Shown here: positions 1,679 through 50,957 of the stretch, piece after piece | Layout: every line of letters begins with the position of its first letter | Numbering within the stretch: the stretch's first letter is position 1 | Source: Candidatus Giovannonibacteria bacterium | Lineage (GTDB): Bacteria; Patescibacteriota; Minisyncoccia; JACPKW01; UBA11713 | Length of the DNA stretch: 62,414 bases | Direction: 5' to 3' | NCBI GenBank assembly: GCA_016176285.1 | Contig: JACOXM010000003.1 | Location: 1 to 62,414 of the forward strand | Program-made: the position numbers and the translations under genes | The notes under the pieces: generated by a model | The model's database searches: none | Told to the model about the DNA's origin: nothing | What the model saw: the letters and a program-made list of their open reading frames with translations, nothing else

Positions 1679-1752
1679 CGGGGTGTAGTATATCGGTAGT
1701 ACGCACGCTTCGGGTGCGTGAAGGCCGAGTTCGATTCTCGGCACCCCGACCA
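1679..1752 (+). tRNA. tRNA-Pro (anticodon CGG), CCA encoded
   Basis: Acceptor CGGGGTG/CACCCCG, anticodon stem CACGC/GCGTG with loop TTCGGGT, T loop TTCGATT, A73 followed by CCA. Confidence 0.85.
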
Positions 1753-1791
1753 ATCAGGGCCCATAGTAAATGGCATTACGCGGCATTTTCA

Positions 1792-1905
1792 CCCCGTCAC
1801 TTAATTCTCGCTTTCGGGCCTGTAGTTAAGTGGCATAACGGCGCATTCGCATTGCGCAAGCGGGGGTTCGATTCCCCCCAGGTCCACCATATATAAGTGA
1901 CGGGG
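1792..1905 (+). repeat. Perfect 12-bp inverted repeat (helix) enclosing the nested tRNA
   Basis: CCCCGTCACTTA (1792-1803) is the exact reverse complement of TAAGTGACGGGG (1894-1905). The arms enclose a 12-nt spacer, tRNA-Ala(CGC) and 4 nt. Confidence 0.9.
1816..1889 (+). tRNA. tRNA-Ala (anticodon CGC), CCA encoded, nested inside the interrupted tRNA-like gene
   Basis: GGGCCTG-TA-GTTA-AGTGGCA-TAAC-G-GCGCA-TTCGCAT-TGCGC-AAGC-GGGGG-TTCGATT-CCCCC-CAGGTCC-A-CCA. G3:U70 is present. Confidence 0.9.
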
Positions 1906-1938
1906 CAAGTTGCCGAGGCTGGAGTTCGATTCTCCATG

Positions 1939-2003
1939 GGTCCACCACTTCGCTCCCTATGGAGCTTCGAAGTGCAGAGCACAATAAAATAAAAAGAAGT
2001 AGT
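1939..2003 (+). repeat. 65-nt repeat copy A (tRNA 3' end plus downstream flank); partner at 50641-50705
   Basis: GGTCCAC[C/T]ACTTCGCTCC[C/T]TATGGAGCTTCGAAGTGCAGAGCACAATAAAATAAAAAGAAGTAGT is shared with 2 mismatches. It contains an imperfect hairpin CACTTCG..CGAAGTG. Confidence 0.85.
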
Positions 2004-5676: not shown

Positions 5677-7146
5677 TTATTCAATCATTGTTTGTGGTAT
5701 TACTAACGCATCTCCACTTACGAAGGGTTCAAAATTTTTTCTAATGAACCACTCGTCAAGCAAGGCATTTGGCAACACTACAATCTTGGTGAACTGCGGT
5801 TTGACTCTCGGTGCTTGAGCTAAAATCGTAAGGGAGAGAGCCAATGTGAGAGCGATTCCTACCTCCTTAAGGTGCCGCCTGATATCCCAAGTATCTCGGA
5901 ACAAATACCACTCGCCACGGAAGCTTCTACAGATAATTCTATTTGTGAATGGGATTGAAAGCATCCATCTTCCGCTTGGAGTGATTGGCATTTTCCCAAC
6001 CAGCGTTGGGGCGTTTGCCTGAGGCACTGATGTTCCCGGCAGGAATTGATGAAGGGTGGACAGAAGTTTTCGGAATCTTCTCATTGGAATACGAAGGTGT
6101 TCCGTTCCAGCAACCGGCATCGCATGGAATAGTTTATGATTTCTAATTCCGAGACGATCCAGAGTCATAAGTAGTCTGCTAAGAATTTCTGGTTTGTCAT
6201 TCACGCCTCGCAAAACCACTGTCTGATCCATAATATCAACACCACTCGATTGGATGTTCTTTATAGCTCGGATTGCCTCACTGGCCAGTTCACAAGGATG
6301 ATTTACATGAGTCACGATGCGAAATGATGCATTCCGCGATTTCATGCGTGAAGCAAATTCTCTGAACATTTCGAGAAGCTCGGTATCATAGAATCGCATC
6401 GGCAGATCCACTACAAGCCGCGTTGCCAACCGGAGAACTTGGACCGTTTCACTTTTTACGAGAGGTTCAAGTATTTCTCTCAGCTGTTTATTGTTGCGCG
6501 TAAGAGGATCCCCACCAGTAACAAGGATGTGCGGCGTTTTTCTTTCGATAGCTTCTTTTACAGCCATCTGGACTTCTTCCAAATCCCCAGTGATTTGAGA
6601 AGCTTCGCCGTGCGCATCTCCCACTTCCCTGAAACAAAATGAGCAGTGGCGCGCGCATGTCGCGGTTGCTATGATGATGTCCGTATTTGGATACATGTTT
6701 TCGAGTGCCTGCGTTTCGGTATCAGACCCCTTTCCAGTAAACAAGATTTTAAGAAACGCTGGAATTGGTAAGCGCTCCCAAATTTTCGAAGAAGCCAAAT
6801 CATGCCGTTTTGCCCAGACCCACTGATGTTCGCTATCTTTCGATGAGGTCGGCAGAATGGATTGCAAGCTTTCCGCCCGGTATCCTTCGGGATCAGAATC
6901 TTTCAAACTTAGCAGCAACTTAACATTATAAGGCGTTAATCCGATGCGTCGGCGCCTTGGCTCAAAATTAGAGTCTAAAAGCCCGATTGCTACCAGTTGG
7001 TCTGTGTTACTGCAGATCGCCTTATATTGCATTTGCCATTTCCAGTTATTCCAATCACTAGACCCTGCTTTCAAGACATCAACGATATTTGTAGTTTTCA
7101 TGATTTTCCCCTTCTGTATGTTTTCAACGATCTTTATTTTCTGCAA
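5677..7146 (-). CDS. KamA family radical SAM aminomutase-like protein (lysine 2,3-aminomutase family)
   Basis: 489-aa ORF with CARHCSFCFRE (CxxxCxxC), GGDPL and a candidate PLP lysine in LVGKMP. An extra C-terminal tail contains the hydrophobic segment IALTLALSLTILA. Confidence 0.7.
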   Translation of the reverse strand: MQKIKIVENIQKGKIMKTTNIVDVLKAGSSDWNNWKWQMQYKAICSNTDQLVAIGLLDSNFEPRRRRIGLTPYNVKLLLSLKDSDPEGYRAESLQSILPTSSKDSEHQWVWAKRHDLASSKIWERLPIPAFLKILFTGKGSDTETQALENMYPNTDIIIATATCARHCSFCFREVGDAHGEASQITGDLEEVQMAVKEAIERKTPHILVTGGDPLTRNNKQLREILEPLVKSETVQVLRLATRLVVDLPMRFYDTELLEMFREFASRMKSRNASFRIVTHVNHPCELASEAIRAIKNIQSSGVDIMDQTVVLRGVNDKPEILSRLLMTLDRLGIRNHKLFHAMPVAGTEHLRIPMRRFRKLLSTLHQFLPGTSVPQANAPTLVGKMPITPSGRWMLSIPFTNRIICRSFRGEWYLFRDTWDIRRHLKEVGIALTLALSLTILAQAPRVKPQFTKIVVLPNALLDEWFIRKNFEPFVSGDALVIPQTMIE

Positions 7147-8054: not shown

Positions 8055-8344
8055 TGAATCCCGTTAGAGATTAAAAAAGTTTATGTTTTATACTTACATT
8101 TTACAAAGCGCGAAAAGTGATTATTGGTATACGGGGAGTACAAAGGATCTACGGAAACGCTTTAATCAACATAATTCTGGAAAATCCTCCTATACAAAAA
8201 CCCGAGGACCATATAAACTTATTTATTACGAAGCTTGTTTAAATGAACAAGACGCAAGGTCGCGAGAATTATATTTAAAAAGTGGCATGGGCAAGCGCTA
8301 TCTTAAAAATAGATTAAAGCGTTTCCTATCTCTAACGGGATGAA
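8055..8344 (+). mobile_element. GIY-YIG mini-cassette: 13-bp terminal inverted repeats plus a putative TGAA target duplication
   Basis: TCCCGTTAGAGAT (8059-8071) is the reverse complement of ATCTCTAACGGGA (8328-8340). TGAA occurs at 8055-8058 and 8341-8344. Removing 8059-8344 restores GGAATGAACTGG, the permease start. Confidence 0.5.
8083..8343 (+). CDS. GIY-YIG nuclease family protein (UPF0213/YhbQ-like)
   Basis: 86-aa ORF with YTYILQS...YTGSTKDL..R...HN and a downstream E/R pattern typical of small GIY-YIG proteins. Confidence 0.75.
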   Translation: MFYTYILQSAKSDYWYTGSTKDLRKRFNQHNSGKSSYTKTRGPYKLIYYEACLNEQDARSRELYLKSGMGKRYLKNRLKRFLSLTG

Positions 8345-11279: not shown

Positions 11280-11933
11280 ATGAGCCAAGCTTTAAAAATT
11301 TTAGAGAGGGTCGGTGCAATCTTGCGAAACGACCATTTCGTTTATACGAACTGGCTACACGGATCTGAATACGTGCTGAAGGACGCGCTCTTGCCGCACG
11401 TGGAGGACACGTCGAAAATCTGCAGCTATATTGCAAGCCACTTCACCCGAAATTACCGTTTTCTCGGGGACGAGCAAAAGATTCAAGTCGTTGCGGCTCC
11501 AGCTGTAGGTGCGGTAGCGCTCGGGTCATGGGTGGCGTACTGGCTTTCCATGTATTCCGGGAAAAAAACTCTTTTCGTATATGCTGATAAGACCCCCGAT
11601 GGTTCGTTTATCTTCAAACGGGGGTATGGAAAATATCTCTACGGAAAAAACGTTCTCGTGGTTGAGGACGTCTTAACCACCGGAGGATCCGCAAAAAAAG
11701 TTGTCGAGGCCGTAAAGCTTGCGTCAGGCACAGTTCTCGGCGTCGGAGCTCTTTGTAATCGGGGAGATATTACGGCGAAGGACGTCGGGGATGTTCCCGA
11801 ACTACATTCGCTGACGGAAATTCGGATGCAAGCTTGGCTAGGGACGGATTGCCCGCTGTGTAAAAAGGGAGTCCCAGTTAACGAAGAAATTGGCCATGGA
11901 TCCGAATTTGTGAAGCGGAGAGCCGCCGCGTAA
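11280..11933 (+). CDS. Phosphoribosyltransferase (PyrE/orotate PRTase-like)
   Basis: 217-aa ORF with the PRPP-binding motif VLVVEDVLTTGGSA, preceded by the AGGAGG RBS. Confidence 0.6.
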   Translation: MSQALKILERVGAILRNDHFVYTNWLHGSEYVLKDALLPHVEDTSKICSYIASHFTRNYRFLGDEQKIQVVAAPAVGAVALGSWVAYWLSMYSGKKTLFVYADKTPDGSFIFKRGYGKYLYGKNVLVVEDVLTTGGSAKKVVEAVKLASGTVLGVGALCNRGDITAKDVGDVPELHSLTEIRMQAWLGTDCPLCKKGVPVNEEIGHGSEFVKRRAAA

Positions 11934-32010: not shown

Positions 32011-32292
32011 GCCGCGGTAGCTCAGTGGTAGAGCGCTACCCTGAAAAAATTCGGGGCCTTCTGCAGTAATGCAGATTGAATAACTGGGTGAAATCGGGGG
32101 AACTCTTTTTAAAGACAATCCCGAGCCAAGGTCGCCTAAGGCGACAAGGTGTAGAGACTATCTCGCAAGAGAGTACTCCTCAATTTTATTGAGGCGGAAG
32201 CGCCCAGGATCCAAAAATATTTTGGATCATGATATAGTCCAAGTTACCTTTGGAAGAGGTAGGCGTCGGGTGTTCGATTCACCCCCGCGGCA
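32011..32292 (+). tRNA. tRNA-Phe (anticodon GAA) interrupted by a group I intron after U33
   Basis: Exon 1 (32011-32042): GCCGCGG-TA-GCTC-AGTGGTA-GAGC-G-CTACC-CT. Exon 2 (32253-32292): GAAGA-GGTAG-GCGTC-GGGTG-TTCGATT-CACCC-CCGCGGC-A. The joined loop is CUGAAGA. Confidence 0.85.
32043..32252 (+). ncRNA. Group I intron (IC3-like, ORF-less, 210 nt)
   Basis: Exon 1 ends in U and the intron ends in G. P1 is CCCU / GGGG around a GAAAAAAUUC loop. Blocks CCGAGCCAAG and AAGGUGUAGAGACUA match my recollection of the Azoarcus tRNA-Ile intron core. GNRA-capped hairpins CTGCA-GTAA-TGCAG and TCTC-GCAA-GAGA are present. Confidence 0.85.
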
Positions 32293-32311
32293 CATTTCTA
32301 GGAGCTACAAC

Positions 32312-50575: not shown

Positions 50576-50646
50576 GGGCCTATAGTTCAGTGGTAGAACG
50601 GATCCATGGCATGGATCAGGTTGGGGTTCGATTCCCCATAGGTCCA
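50576..50646 (+). tRNA. tRNA-Ala (anticodon GGC)
   Basis: Acceptor GGGCCTA/TAGGTCC with G3:U70, anticodon stem GATCC/GGATC with loop ATGGCAT, T arm TGGGG-TTCGATT-CCCCA, A73. No CCA. Confidence 0.85.
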
Positions 50647-50705
50647 CTACTTCGCTCCTTATGGAGCTTCGAAGTGCAGAGCACAATAAAATAAAAAGAA
50701 GTAGT
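50641..50705 (+). repeat. 65-nt repeat copy B (partner of 1939-2003)
   Basis: Identical to copy A except for 2 mismatches. It starts within the 3' acceptor strand of tRNA-Ala(GGC). Confidence 0.85.
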
Positions 50706-50744: not shown

Positions 50745-50957
50745 ATGTATTACATATATATTTTACAAAGCCAAAAAGATAGGAGTTATTACACAGGTAT
50801 TACAGAAGATTTAAAGCAAAGATTGCGAGAGCATAATGCTGGCCCCTTTAAGATAGCCTTTTATTGTGCTTTTAAAGATAAAAAGAAGGCATTAGATTTT
50901 GAAAAATATTTAAAATCTAGCTCCGGGTTTGCCTTCGCTCGCAAAAGATTTATTTAA
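50745..50957 (+). CDS. GIY-YIG nuclease family protein, shortened variant (possibly decaying)
   Basis: MYYIYILQSQKDRSYYTGITEDLKQRLREHNAG followed by a shortened C-terminal half relative to the 86-aa paralog at 8083. Confidence 0.55.
   Translation: MYYIYILQSQKDRSYYTGITEDLKQRLREHNAGPFKIAFYCAFKDKKKALDFEKYLKSSSGFAFARKRFI

Follow-up and report, generated by a model that had tools for sequence, protein, structure and literature searches.

Miniature inverted-repeat transposable elements (MITEs), such as the Correia elements of Neisseria, are short, non-autonomous units with terminal inverted repeats that occur in many copies. We know of no bacterial MITE that carries a functional tRNA or inserts into a cognate tRNA gene. 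Among mobile DNA that targets tRNA genes, integrase elements (phage, integrative and conjugative element, and pNOB8-type, including the Caldiarchaeum tRNA-Thr model) restore the gene that they enter (PMC3293823), and group I introns occur in bacterial tRNA anticodon loops (PMC3984707). Archaeal tRNA genes can be disrupted by bulge-helix-bulge introns or split, as in Nanoarchaeum, and a mobile-element origin has been suggested for them (PMC4390854, PMC3978253). Two groups of GIY-YIG nucleases also offer comparisons: T4 SegB is a free-standing homing endonuclease in a tRNA gene cluster (PMC2330249), and Ssn proteins are single-domain nucleases that cut single-stranded DNA beside a hairpin; their genes lie between hairpin repeats of their own, a layout noted as insertion-sequence-like for which no cargo or tRNA link was reported (PMC11893778). 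Here we describe a locus in a 62,414-nucleotide stretch of contig JACOXM010000003.1 from Candidatus Giovannonibacteria (the window), in which a complete tRNA-Ala(CGC) gene (the inner tRNA) lies within the anticodon loop of a second, resident tRNA-Ala(CGC) gene (the outer tRNA). We conclude that this is very probably a mobile, tRNA-carrying insertion in the resident gene; the element is MITE-like and is neither an intron nor a recoding or functional split tRNA.

A resident tRNA-Ala(CGC) gene disrupted by a cognate tRNA

The window was compared with syntenic loci of relatives and with metagenome contigs, which are given L-numbers (L001 etc.). In L002/L003, L004/L005, and L006, tRNA-Pro(CGG) is followed by an uninterrupted tRNA-Ala(CGC) gene (GGGCCCATAGTAAAGTGGTATTACGCGGCA-TTCGCAT-TGCCGAGGCTGGAGTTCGATTCTCCATGGGTCCA). 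The Pro-Ala gene order is common to the window and these relatives, and L023 also has an uninterrupted gene at the same locus, of another sequence type. The outer 3' half in the window is identical to the intact orthologue in L002/L004/L006 at 35 of 35 positions (U38 to A73), and the outer 5' half (1757-1791, which reads GGGCCCA TA GTAA ATGGCA TTAC G CGGCA TTTTCA) differs from it only in the D loop, where there is one indel and one substitution. As both halves and the 3' flank, which is common to L001 and L004 in the alignment, match the uninterrupted gene of relatives, the outer tRNA is the resident gene. Relative to the empty site, CGCA (positions 34-37) has been swapped for 122 nt (1788-1909) that comprise, in order, the tag TTCA, a repeat, a spacer, the inner tRNA, a second spacer, the inverted copy of the repeat, and the tag CAAG (Table 1). 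An earlier, sequence-only reading of this locus had taken the CA beside both repeats for a possible 2-bp target duplication, an idea that falls away because the empty sites show CGCA replaced by TTCA...CAAG.

The coordinates, sequences, and nested layout given in that reading are all as described. The two repeats form a perfect 12-bp helix (the clamp), complementary at 12 of 12 positions, which is the sole perfect repeat of such length in 1600-2100, and G3:U70 is present in both the inner and the outer tRNA. The minimum free energy RNA fold of 1757-1950 is a nested double cloverleaf (-75.9 kcal/mol, z = -4.1; 0 of 200 shuffles equal). The outer stems are intact, but the 7-nt anticodon loop is gone, with 122 nt in its place. 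The inner and outer tRNAs of the window are only 77% identical, and the inner tRNA is probably the only working tRNA-Ala(CGC) here; the upstream tRNA-Pro(CGG) and the outer tRNA are probably co-transcribed. No open reading frame (ORF) lies within the insert (1788-1909), and Rfam at E <= 10 on 1650-2050 returned only the two tRNAs and chance matches. One match, to permuted transfer-messenger RNA (tmRNA; 22.6 bits), was rejected because it is merely the inner T arm plus CCA.

Among other close relatives, too, some sites are filled and others empty. L116, which is filled, and L001, which is empty, have ~93% identical flanks and an identical 5' tRNA half; in L001, it is the upstream Pro gene, not the Ala gene, that holds a nested Pro tRNA. 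In L007, also from Giovannonibacteria, the same element type occupies the very same locus, with a clamp (CCCCGCCACTTA/TAAGTGGCGTGG) that has one compensatory change and an inner tRNA 96% identical to that of the window, and the outer gene is reduced to GCGGCA and CAAGT-TGCCGA, with the acceptor, D, and T arms lost. Presence/absence polymorphism is seen between the window and L002/L004/L006, between L116 and L001, and, for a GIY-YIG element of the window described below, between the window and L023/L007/L025. Three quite different tRNA-Ala(CGC) sequence types are found among relatives at this one syntenic locus, which is the expected outcome of repeated replacement. These comparisons favour one of three explanations that the sequence-only reading had offered, namely an outer gene turned into a pseudogene by a tRNA-carrying miniature insertion. 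The uninterrupted gene that it anticipated in relatives is present, and the decay by substitutions in the outer stems that it also anticipated was not seen.

Table 1. Coordinates of the nested tRNA-Ala(CGC) locus and of a related element in the window
Feature	Position	Strand	Details
Upstream neighbour tRNA-Pro(CGG)	1679..1752	+	ARAGORN; Rfam 56.6 bits; 4 nt before outer tRNA
Outer (resident) tRNA-Ala(CGC), 5' part, positions 1-33	1757..1787	+	Acceptor strand, D arm, anticodon-stem strand CGGCA, U32 U33
Left 4-nt tag TTCA of element	1788..1791	+	Empty site TTCGCAT vs filled TTTTCA[..]CAAGT
Left terminal inverted repeat (clamp) CCCCGTCACTTA	1792..1803	+	12/12 complementary to 1894-1905
Spacer, left repeat to inner tRNA	1804..1815	+	12 nt; length and sequence differ among loci
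Inner tRNA-Ala(CGC), encoded CCA	1816..1889	+	ARAGORN; Rfam tRNA 66.8 bits; 21 stem pairs, 0 mismatches
Spacer TATA	1890..1893	+	
Right terminal inverted repeat TAAGTGACGGGG	1894..1905	+	Complementary to 1792-1803
Right 4-nt tag CAAG of element	1906..1909	+	CAAG/CGAG also after right repeat in Pro(CGG) elements L026, L052, L126, L020
Outer tRNA-Ala(CGC), 3' part	1910..1947	+	U38, TGCCG, variable AGGC, T arm, acceptor strand, A73 (1944), CCA 1945-1947
Conserved 3' flank of resident Ala locus	1948..2003	+	Aligns with L001 and L004; second copy after tRNA-Ala(GGC), 50648-50705
Related element, same repeat family	8055..8344	+	TGAA; TCCCGTTAGAGAT (8059-8071); ORF 8083-8343; ATCTCTAACGGGA (8328-8340); TGAA

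The neighbours of the locus encode a CCA-adding enzyme (204-1664), an RNase T-like exonuclease (2005-2544), and a UPF0102 protein. The nearest relatives of the CCA-adding enzyme are 74-83% identical and come from Candidatus Giovannonibacteria (Parcubacteria, candidate phyla radiation (CPR)); in L002-L006, the adjoining CCA-adding enzyme is 78-80% identical to that of the window. A ~58-nt sequence (ACTTCGCTCCYTATGGAGCTTCGAAGTGCAGAGCACAATAAAATAAAAAGAAGTAGT) follows both tRNA-Ala loci of the window (1948-2003 and 50648-50705; ~56/58 identical), is conserved after tRNA-Ala in L001 and L004, and contains two small hairpins (z = -2.75).

Recurrence, cognate cargo, and loss of the outer genes

The nested arrangement is widespread among related ultra-small bacteria. 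To gauge recurrence, 80 GTDB species loci plus the first five loci were screened for T arms outside any called tRNA. About 17 of the 305 tRNA genes (~5%) in the 80 GTDB species loci are nested, including 5/41 for Ala(CGC), 7/69 for Pro(CGG), and 3/13 for Pro(UGG), and also Arg. Pro(CGG) lies inside Pro(CGG) in L001, L014, L016, L026, L028, and L080, and also in L020 and L052; Pro(UGG) inside Pro(UGG) in L010, L011, and L023; and Ala inside Ala in L053 and L063, and also in L032, L007, and L064. The L053 junctions are those of the window (CGGCA TTTTCA CCCC... / ...GGGG CAAGT TGCCG), with a different clamp (CCCCCACACCA/TGGTGTGGGGG). A pattern made of the L053/window junction and the Ala anticodon loop, with an expectation of 0 in shuffles of the window, matched 63 metagenome contigs, 62 of which have a full tRNA-Ala(CGC) in the same architecture (L123 is a chance match with no tRNA). 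The Ala pattern had 0 matches in viral contigs, and these thus give no sign of phage carriage. Insertions are not confined to anticodon loops: Arg(CCG) lies in the T loop of Arg(CCG) in L048 and Lys(CUU) in that of Lys(CUU) in L102, both with an intact outer anticodon arm, and L119 and L124 have insertions in the D region. Multi-level nesting occurs in L064, L139, L142, and L144, and the Arg(UCG) locus of L064 apparently has three levels.

The cargo is cognate. An orphan 3' half just behind a tRNA has the amino-acid family of the tRNA that it follows (35 Ala, 9 Pro, 5 Arg, and 1 Lys), and the only exceptions to this rule are one assembly gap and one decayed case; an apparent orphan half in L008 was discarded as an assembly gap. 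Two tRNA repeats of another kind are present on the minus strand of L030: a tRNA-Gly(GCC) followed by two tandem 74-nt repeats that each end in a tRNA 3'-end copy (~2605-2830), and a tRNA-Lys(CUU) followed by a degenerate second copy with a hairpin insertion (~2241-2410). These Lys and Gly repeats were rejected as nested elements, being tandem degenerate copies.

The 52 distinct Ala loci formed the set for clamp and inner/outer statistics. The inner tRNA was called intact in 52/52, whereas the outer gene, after its loop had been repaired in silico, could be called in no more than 36; in 16 it is unrecoverable, having lost a half or the T arm or received further small palindromic insertions. 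Identities of inner and outer tRNAs are uncorrelated (r = 0.03). Among the 13 pairs with inner tRNAs at least 95% identical, ten have outer tRNAs less than 85% identical, L118/L138 have inner tRNAs that are 100% and outer tRNAs that are 70% identical, and the outer genes of hosts with near-identical units differ by 20-40%. The inner sequence follows the clamp type, not the host. The unit is mobile among outer genes, whose halves decay while the inner tRNA stays intact (as at L007, where most of the outer gene is gone), again in line with the miniature insertion. No point-mutation decay was found in still-recognisable outer genes; since these keep their stem pairs, decay is all-or-none, by indels and further insertions.

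Two side observations concern these tRNAs. A 20-nt palindrome (CCTGCCTGCCGGCAGGCAGG) or near variants of it are inserted into outer tRNAs that are already disrupted, in either the variable or the D region (L100, L108, and L116, in the variable region of the outer tRNA-Ala, and the minus strand of L064 at ~11560-11585) and look like a second, unrelated family of tiny hairpin insertions. The T loop TCCGATT, with C for the near-universal U55, is found in L001 (4167-4238 and 2535) and in several inner and outer tRNAs of L088, L089, and L100; such loops are present in otherwise perfect, called tRNAs and occur in ~10% of inner and 20-25% of outer Ala tRNAs.

The loss of outer genes bears directly on whether the outer halves could form a functional split RNA, held together by the clamp and by the anticodon and acceptor stems and serving as an Ala acceptor that lacks an anticodon, for example in a non-ribosomal or tmRNA-like role. 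The helices would keep the halves together, G3:U70 and an encoded CCA are present, intact outer genes are free of point mutation, and paired changes between lineages, among them the compensatory change in L007, preserve the clamp. However, the outer halves are dispensable, being broken in 16/52 loci and largely deleted at the orthologous L007 locus. A role specific to Ala does not fit, since T loops and the tRNAs for Pro, Arg, and Lys show the same arrangement, and the same repeats also bound protein genes and cargo-less copies, so the paired clamp changes are equally expected of transposon ends. Clamped halves, which the sequence-only reading had proposed as products of RNase P and RNase Z, may occur physically, but there is no sign of a product kept by selection, and we regard a functional split RNA as highly unlikely.

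Shared ends, target loops, and GIY-YIG elements

Repeats of 12-13 bp are found in the 52 distinct Ala loci, in Pro, Arg, and Lys loci, and at intergenic copies. The clamp of the window (CCCCGTCACTTA) is identical in L100 and L108, and variants (CCCCGTTAGAAAT and others) are present in 50 further loci; among the 52 Ala loci the commonest clamp is CCCCGTTAGAAAT/ATTTCTAACGGGG. The mean helix of these 52 clamps is 12.8 bp, and their 665 positions comprise 641 Watson-Crick pairs, 5 G.U pairs, and 19 other mismatches. Outside tRNAs, the motif YCCCGTTAGAR...YTCTAACGGGR is flanked by TGAA...TGAA, often at the ATGAA start of a gene, and these non-tRNA copies include cargo-less short copies, nested copies, and copies around GIY-YIG ORFs of 83-86 aa. 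TTCA is the reverse complement of TGAA, and the tag flanks the same repeats at intergenic sites; as it also occurs there, TTCA is not a selected anticodon.

At all tRNA sites that can be reconstructed, TTCG stands at the 5' side of a 7-nt hairpin loop, which is the anticodon loop in Ala (TTCGCAT), Pro (TTCGGGT), and Arg (CTTCGAA) or a T loop (TTCGATT). The junctions are TTCG-element in L064, TTC[A/G]-element-CAAG in Ala and Pro(CGG) genes, CCCG-element-TGAA in T-loop cases (and L139), and TGAA-element-TGAA at intergenic copies, where the TGAA...TGAA may be a duplication of the kind typical of insertion. Spacers were inspected by eye for a guide-like complement between the element and the anticodon arm; one suggestive case (L110) and no general pattern emerged, and the idea was rejected.

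The tags are central to the first explanation in the sequence-only reading, in which a 118-122-nt segment is excised as a functional intron and the halves are ligated to give an Ala-charged tRNA with the anticodon UUC, or another, that recodes or mistranslates Glu codons. Such an intron would agree with the stable nested fold, with the intact outer cloverleaf of the window, and with recognisable outer genes that have no excess of stem mismatches. The insert also starts after U and ends in G like group I introns (...UU/UUCA...CAAG/U), and the window contains a genuine group I intron at 33/34 of tRNA-Phe. The match at the ends is weak because the same tags flank repeats at non-tRNA sites, and the supposed UUC-A is the terminal tag TTCA of the element, present also at intergenic copies. 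There is no group I core (no RF00028 match in 1650-2050 at E <= 10, against 72.2 bits for the same model on the tRNA-Phe intron), and the insert, with 122 nt of which 74 are tRNA, is too short for group I introns of typically ~200 nt or more. The sequence-only reading could not fit a bulge-helix-bulge motif (two 3-nt bulges with a 4-bp helix between), and indeed the predicted fold has instead the anticodon stem, a small asymmetric internal loop with a 3-bp helix, and the 12-bp helix. ARAGORN, which that reading had proposed to run with intron options, made no call for the outer gene even in intron mode and called it only after in-silico excision of the insert; the anticodon then obtained depends wholly on the chosen junction and so carries no information on splicing. 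Finally, the anticodon at this locus is plain CGC in relatives, 16/52 loci have kept the insert but have a destroyed outer gene, and for insertions elsewhere, in T loops or the D region, splicing could yield no decoding tRNA. A functional intron is therefore extremely improbable.

The group I intron elsewhere in the window splits a tRNA-Phe(GAA) (32012-32297; RF00028 at 32033-32262) between U33 and G34, and ARAGORN does not call this tRNA.

The ends of the nested tRNA units are shared with elements that encode small GIY-YIG nucleases. In the window, repeats of the same family surround ORF 8083-8343, which encodes an 86-aa single-domain GIY-YIG nuclease (Pfam PF01541, residues 1-68, E = 1.9e-17) whose nearest solved relative is UPF0213 protein BH0048 (PDB 1ZG2, E = 6e-9); in NCBIfam the sole match, to a group I intron endonuclease model, was below threshold. 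The stop codon of this ORF overlaps the ATG of the next gene (ABC permease, 8340), and in L023/L007/L025 the downstream permease gene starts with ATGAAC and there is no element. GIY-YIG ORFs are bounded by the same repeat types in the window (8059-8340), L093, L139, L069, L077, and L117, and clamp types of Ala cargo also surround GIY-YIG ORFs (CCCCGCACC in L069, CCCCCACAC in L077). In L064, the halves of a tRNA-Ala enclose both a GIY-YIG ORF and a tRNA-Ala(CGC), inserted exactly between TTCG and CAT. The element at 8055-8344 is a candidate source of the mobilising enzyme, and from analogy with known nucleases we see an about equal chance that the GIY-YIG protein does or does not mobilise the tRNA units.

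GIY-YIG ORFs are also found close to tRNA genes. A second one in the window (50745-50951; Pfam E = 1.9e-14) starts ~100 nt after tRNA-Ala(GGC) (50576-50647) and is accompanied by what appear to be decayed copies of the same inverted repeats (AGGGC-TAAAT... / ...TTTTCTAACGCCCT). In L002/L003/L006 (~6713-6913), there is a small GIY-YIG ORF directly upstream of the intact tRNA-Ala(CGC); the sequence ahead of this ORF, ...GGGACATTCGCAC..., may be left over from the anticodon arm of a tRNA-Ala. In L077 (20620-20945), the interrupted gene is a type II (Ser/Leu-like) tRNA, a tRNA-Ser, which a GIY-YIG element whose repeat is CCCCCACACTAATTGAG has entered at the 5' end; the first ~9 nt of the interrupted tRNA (GGAGGCGTG) are duplicated, which restores the gene on one side.

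The resident gene could be disrupted as described and the unit yet move by homologous recombination, not by transposition; a nested allele would then spread by natural transformation or homing with the tRNA halves as homology arms, and the GIY-YIG gene would be a passenger or encode a homing nuclease that cuts empty alleles. This would account for the strict cognate rule and for junction tags that travel with the unit, and the window and L007 do have the same anticodon stem beside the element. There is also a precedent in SegB, which as a free-standing GIY-YIG homing nuclease promotes the inheritance of neighbouring tRNA genes (PMC2330249). However, the boundaries are sharp, leaving only 1-2 nt of shared sequence for crossovers, hosts of near-identical units have outer genes as divergent as described above, and intergenic copies show what looks like a TGAA duplication typical of insertion. 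The anticodon stems that adjoin the unit are host-specific, mutually complementary, and uncorrelated with element type; together with tags that replace loop bases, this indicates precise insertion of a tagged unit and argues against recombination via tRNA halves. We consider spread by homologous recombination unlikely, although less so than the intron or the split RNA.

In the mobile insertion, a non-autonomous 122-bp element has entered the anticodon loop and destroyed the resident anticodon (CGCA replaced), and it is tolerated because the cargo tRNA replaces the lost function. From there, we infer the following course. The locus would probably be transcribed from the resident promoter and the inner tRNA freed by RNase P and 3' processing, with the outer halves as by-products that would eventually be lost via deletion or further insertions. 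As the cargo tRNA offers the same TTCG-type loop target, it could be hit again, which would produce multi-level nesting. The most likely mobilising enzyme would be the GIY-YIG protein, given its analogy with Ssn nucleases and their action on hairpins of single-stranded DNA. The cognate-only pattern could arise because non-cognate hits on single-copy tRNA genes are lethal or through some homology-guided targeting.

Several points weigh against a mobile insertion of this kind. The tRNA sites have no target duplication, and at least 4 loop bases are replaced by TTCA/CAAG or CCCG/TGAA tags, which fits no known transposition chemistry simply; there are, moreover, several junction classes (TTCA..CAAG, TTCG..CAAG, CCCG..TGAA, and TTCG..none). 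The 62 metagenome loci came from a pattern that fixes the junction, and conservation of the junction is thus not inferable from them. With 5 G.U pairs against 19 mismatches in 665 positions, the clamp has no clear RNA-specific (G.U) or DNA-specific signal. Recognisable outer genes have no excess of stem mismatches (20.8/21 pairs) and are as often intact in this respect as inner ones, and the outer 3' half of the window is identical to a functional orthologue; the insertion in the window must therefore be recent, or else some constraint acts on the outer structure. The link to GIY-YIG nucleases, as read from the sequences, consists only of shared repeats and co-occurrence.

Relation to known systems

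Like integrase elements, the unit is inserted in a tRNA gene (for them often in the anticodon or T loop), carries tRNA sequence, keeps a working gene, and leaves orphan fragments. Integrase elements are kilobases long, use a tyrosine or serine recombinase, carry the part of the tRNA downstream of the crossover, and leave one direct-repeat fragment, whereas the unit described here is ~120 bp long, has inverted repeats and no recombinase, carries a complete divergent tRNA gene, and orphans both halves. A tRNA-targeting integrase element was rejected because 1788-1909 has no ORF, the outer halves are complementary parts of one gene, and the inner and outer tRNAs differ as much as they do. The tyrosine-recombinase att and integron attC models were rejected too, as no crossover core is directly repeated and the cargo lies between the repeats, which are not placed side by side. 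With group I introns, the unit has in common that it is a mobile insert at or near 33/34 of a bacterial anticodon loop that does the host no harm; unlike them, it has no ribozyme and destroys the anticodon, and the harm is offset by a replacement gene, not by self-splicing RNA.

A close parallel to the GIY-YIG elements is the Ssn/NTS arrangement, in which, as here, a single-domain GIY-YIG ORF of 83-94 aa lies between inverted copies of a genome-scattered repeat in an insertion-sequence-like layout. CGTCA in the clamp of the window agrees with HGTCW, the beginning of the Ssn-related motif as published. The Ssn repeats are self-contained hairpins of 20-50 nt, whereas here the arms enclose a tRNA, a GIY-YIG ORF, or nothing. 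The likeness of the GIY-YIG protein of the window to Ssn (cd10448) is drawn from sequence only: the ~90-aa size and the repeats on both sides fit, and the best solved relative is UPF0213. REP/RAYT and IS200/IS605 systems are likened to these elements by analogy only. SegB, too, is a GIY-YIG nuclease whose gene is physically tied to tRNA genes, the preferential inheritance of which it promotes; it is a multi-domain homing nuclease for double-stranded DNA in a phage, with no nesting, inverted repeats, or disrupted tRNA gene.

As in archaeal disrupted tRNA genes, the halves are joined by a long helix beside the anticodon stem. The archaeal genes give functional tRNAs, spliced or ligated by a dedicated endonuclease and ligase, whereas here the host is a bacterium, there is no bulge-helix-bulge, the anticodon is lost, and the outer halves decay. 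MITEs resemble the unit in their small size, lack of autonomy, inverted repeats, multiple copies, presence/absence polymorphism, and specific short target. Searching of the full-text literature yielded no description of nested cognate tRNAs or tRNA-carrying MITEs in bacteria, and none of the known systems compared joins inverted-repeat ends, a complete cognate tRNA cargo, and insertion into a tRNA hairpin loop. Mobile DNA that targets tRNA genes and compensates the damage is already known; the nested cognate-tRNA arrangement appears to be new.

We tentatively suggest, as a possibility that falls somewhat short of probable, that these elements form a previously unrecognised class of bacterial mobile DNA, in which hairpin-ended units, moved on single-stranded DNA by Ssn-like GIY-YIG proteins, enter TTCG-type tRNA hairpin loops and carry a complete replacement gene. 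Repeated rounds would drive rapid tRNA-gene turnover and multi-level nesting in CPR bacteria and would offer a living model for the origin of split and intron-bearing tRNA genes. Small GIY-YIG nucleases, recently shown elsewhere to be hairpin-specific nucleases of single-stranded DNA, would be tied to testable mobile-element behaviour with a TTCG hairpin-loop target.

For annotation, such loci should be counted as one working tRNA, not as two and not as a recoding tRNA, and the nested units explain orphan tRNA halves and unusually divergent tRNA alleles at syntenic CPR loci. They are also actual cases of a process that has long been proposed to give rise to disrupted tRNA genes. Compared with introns and inteins, which sit in essential genes by self-splicing, and with integrase elements, which restore part of the gene, the nested units represent a third way to occupy an essential gene, by bringing a whole substitute gene.

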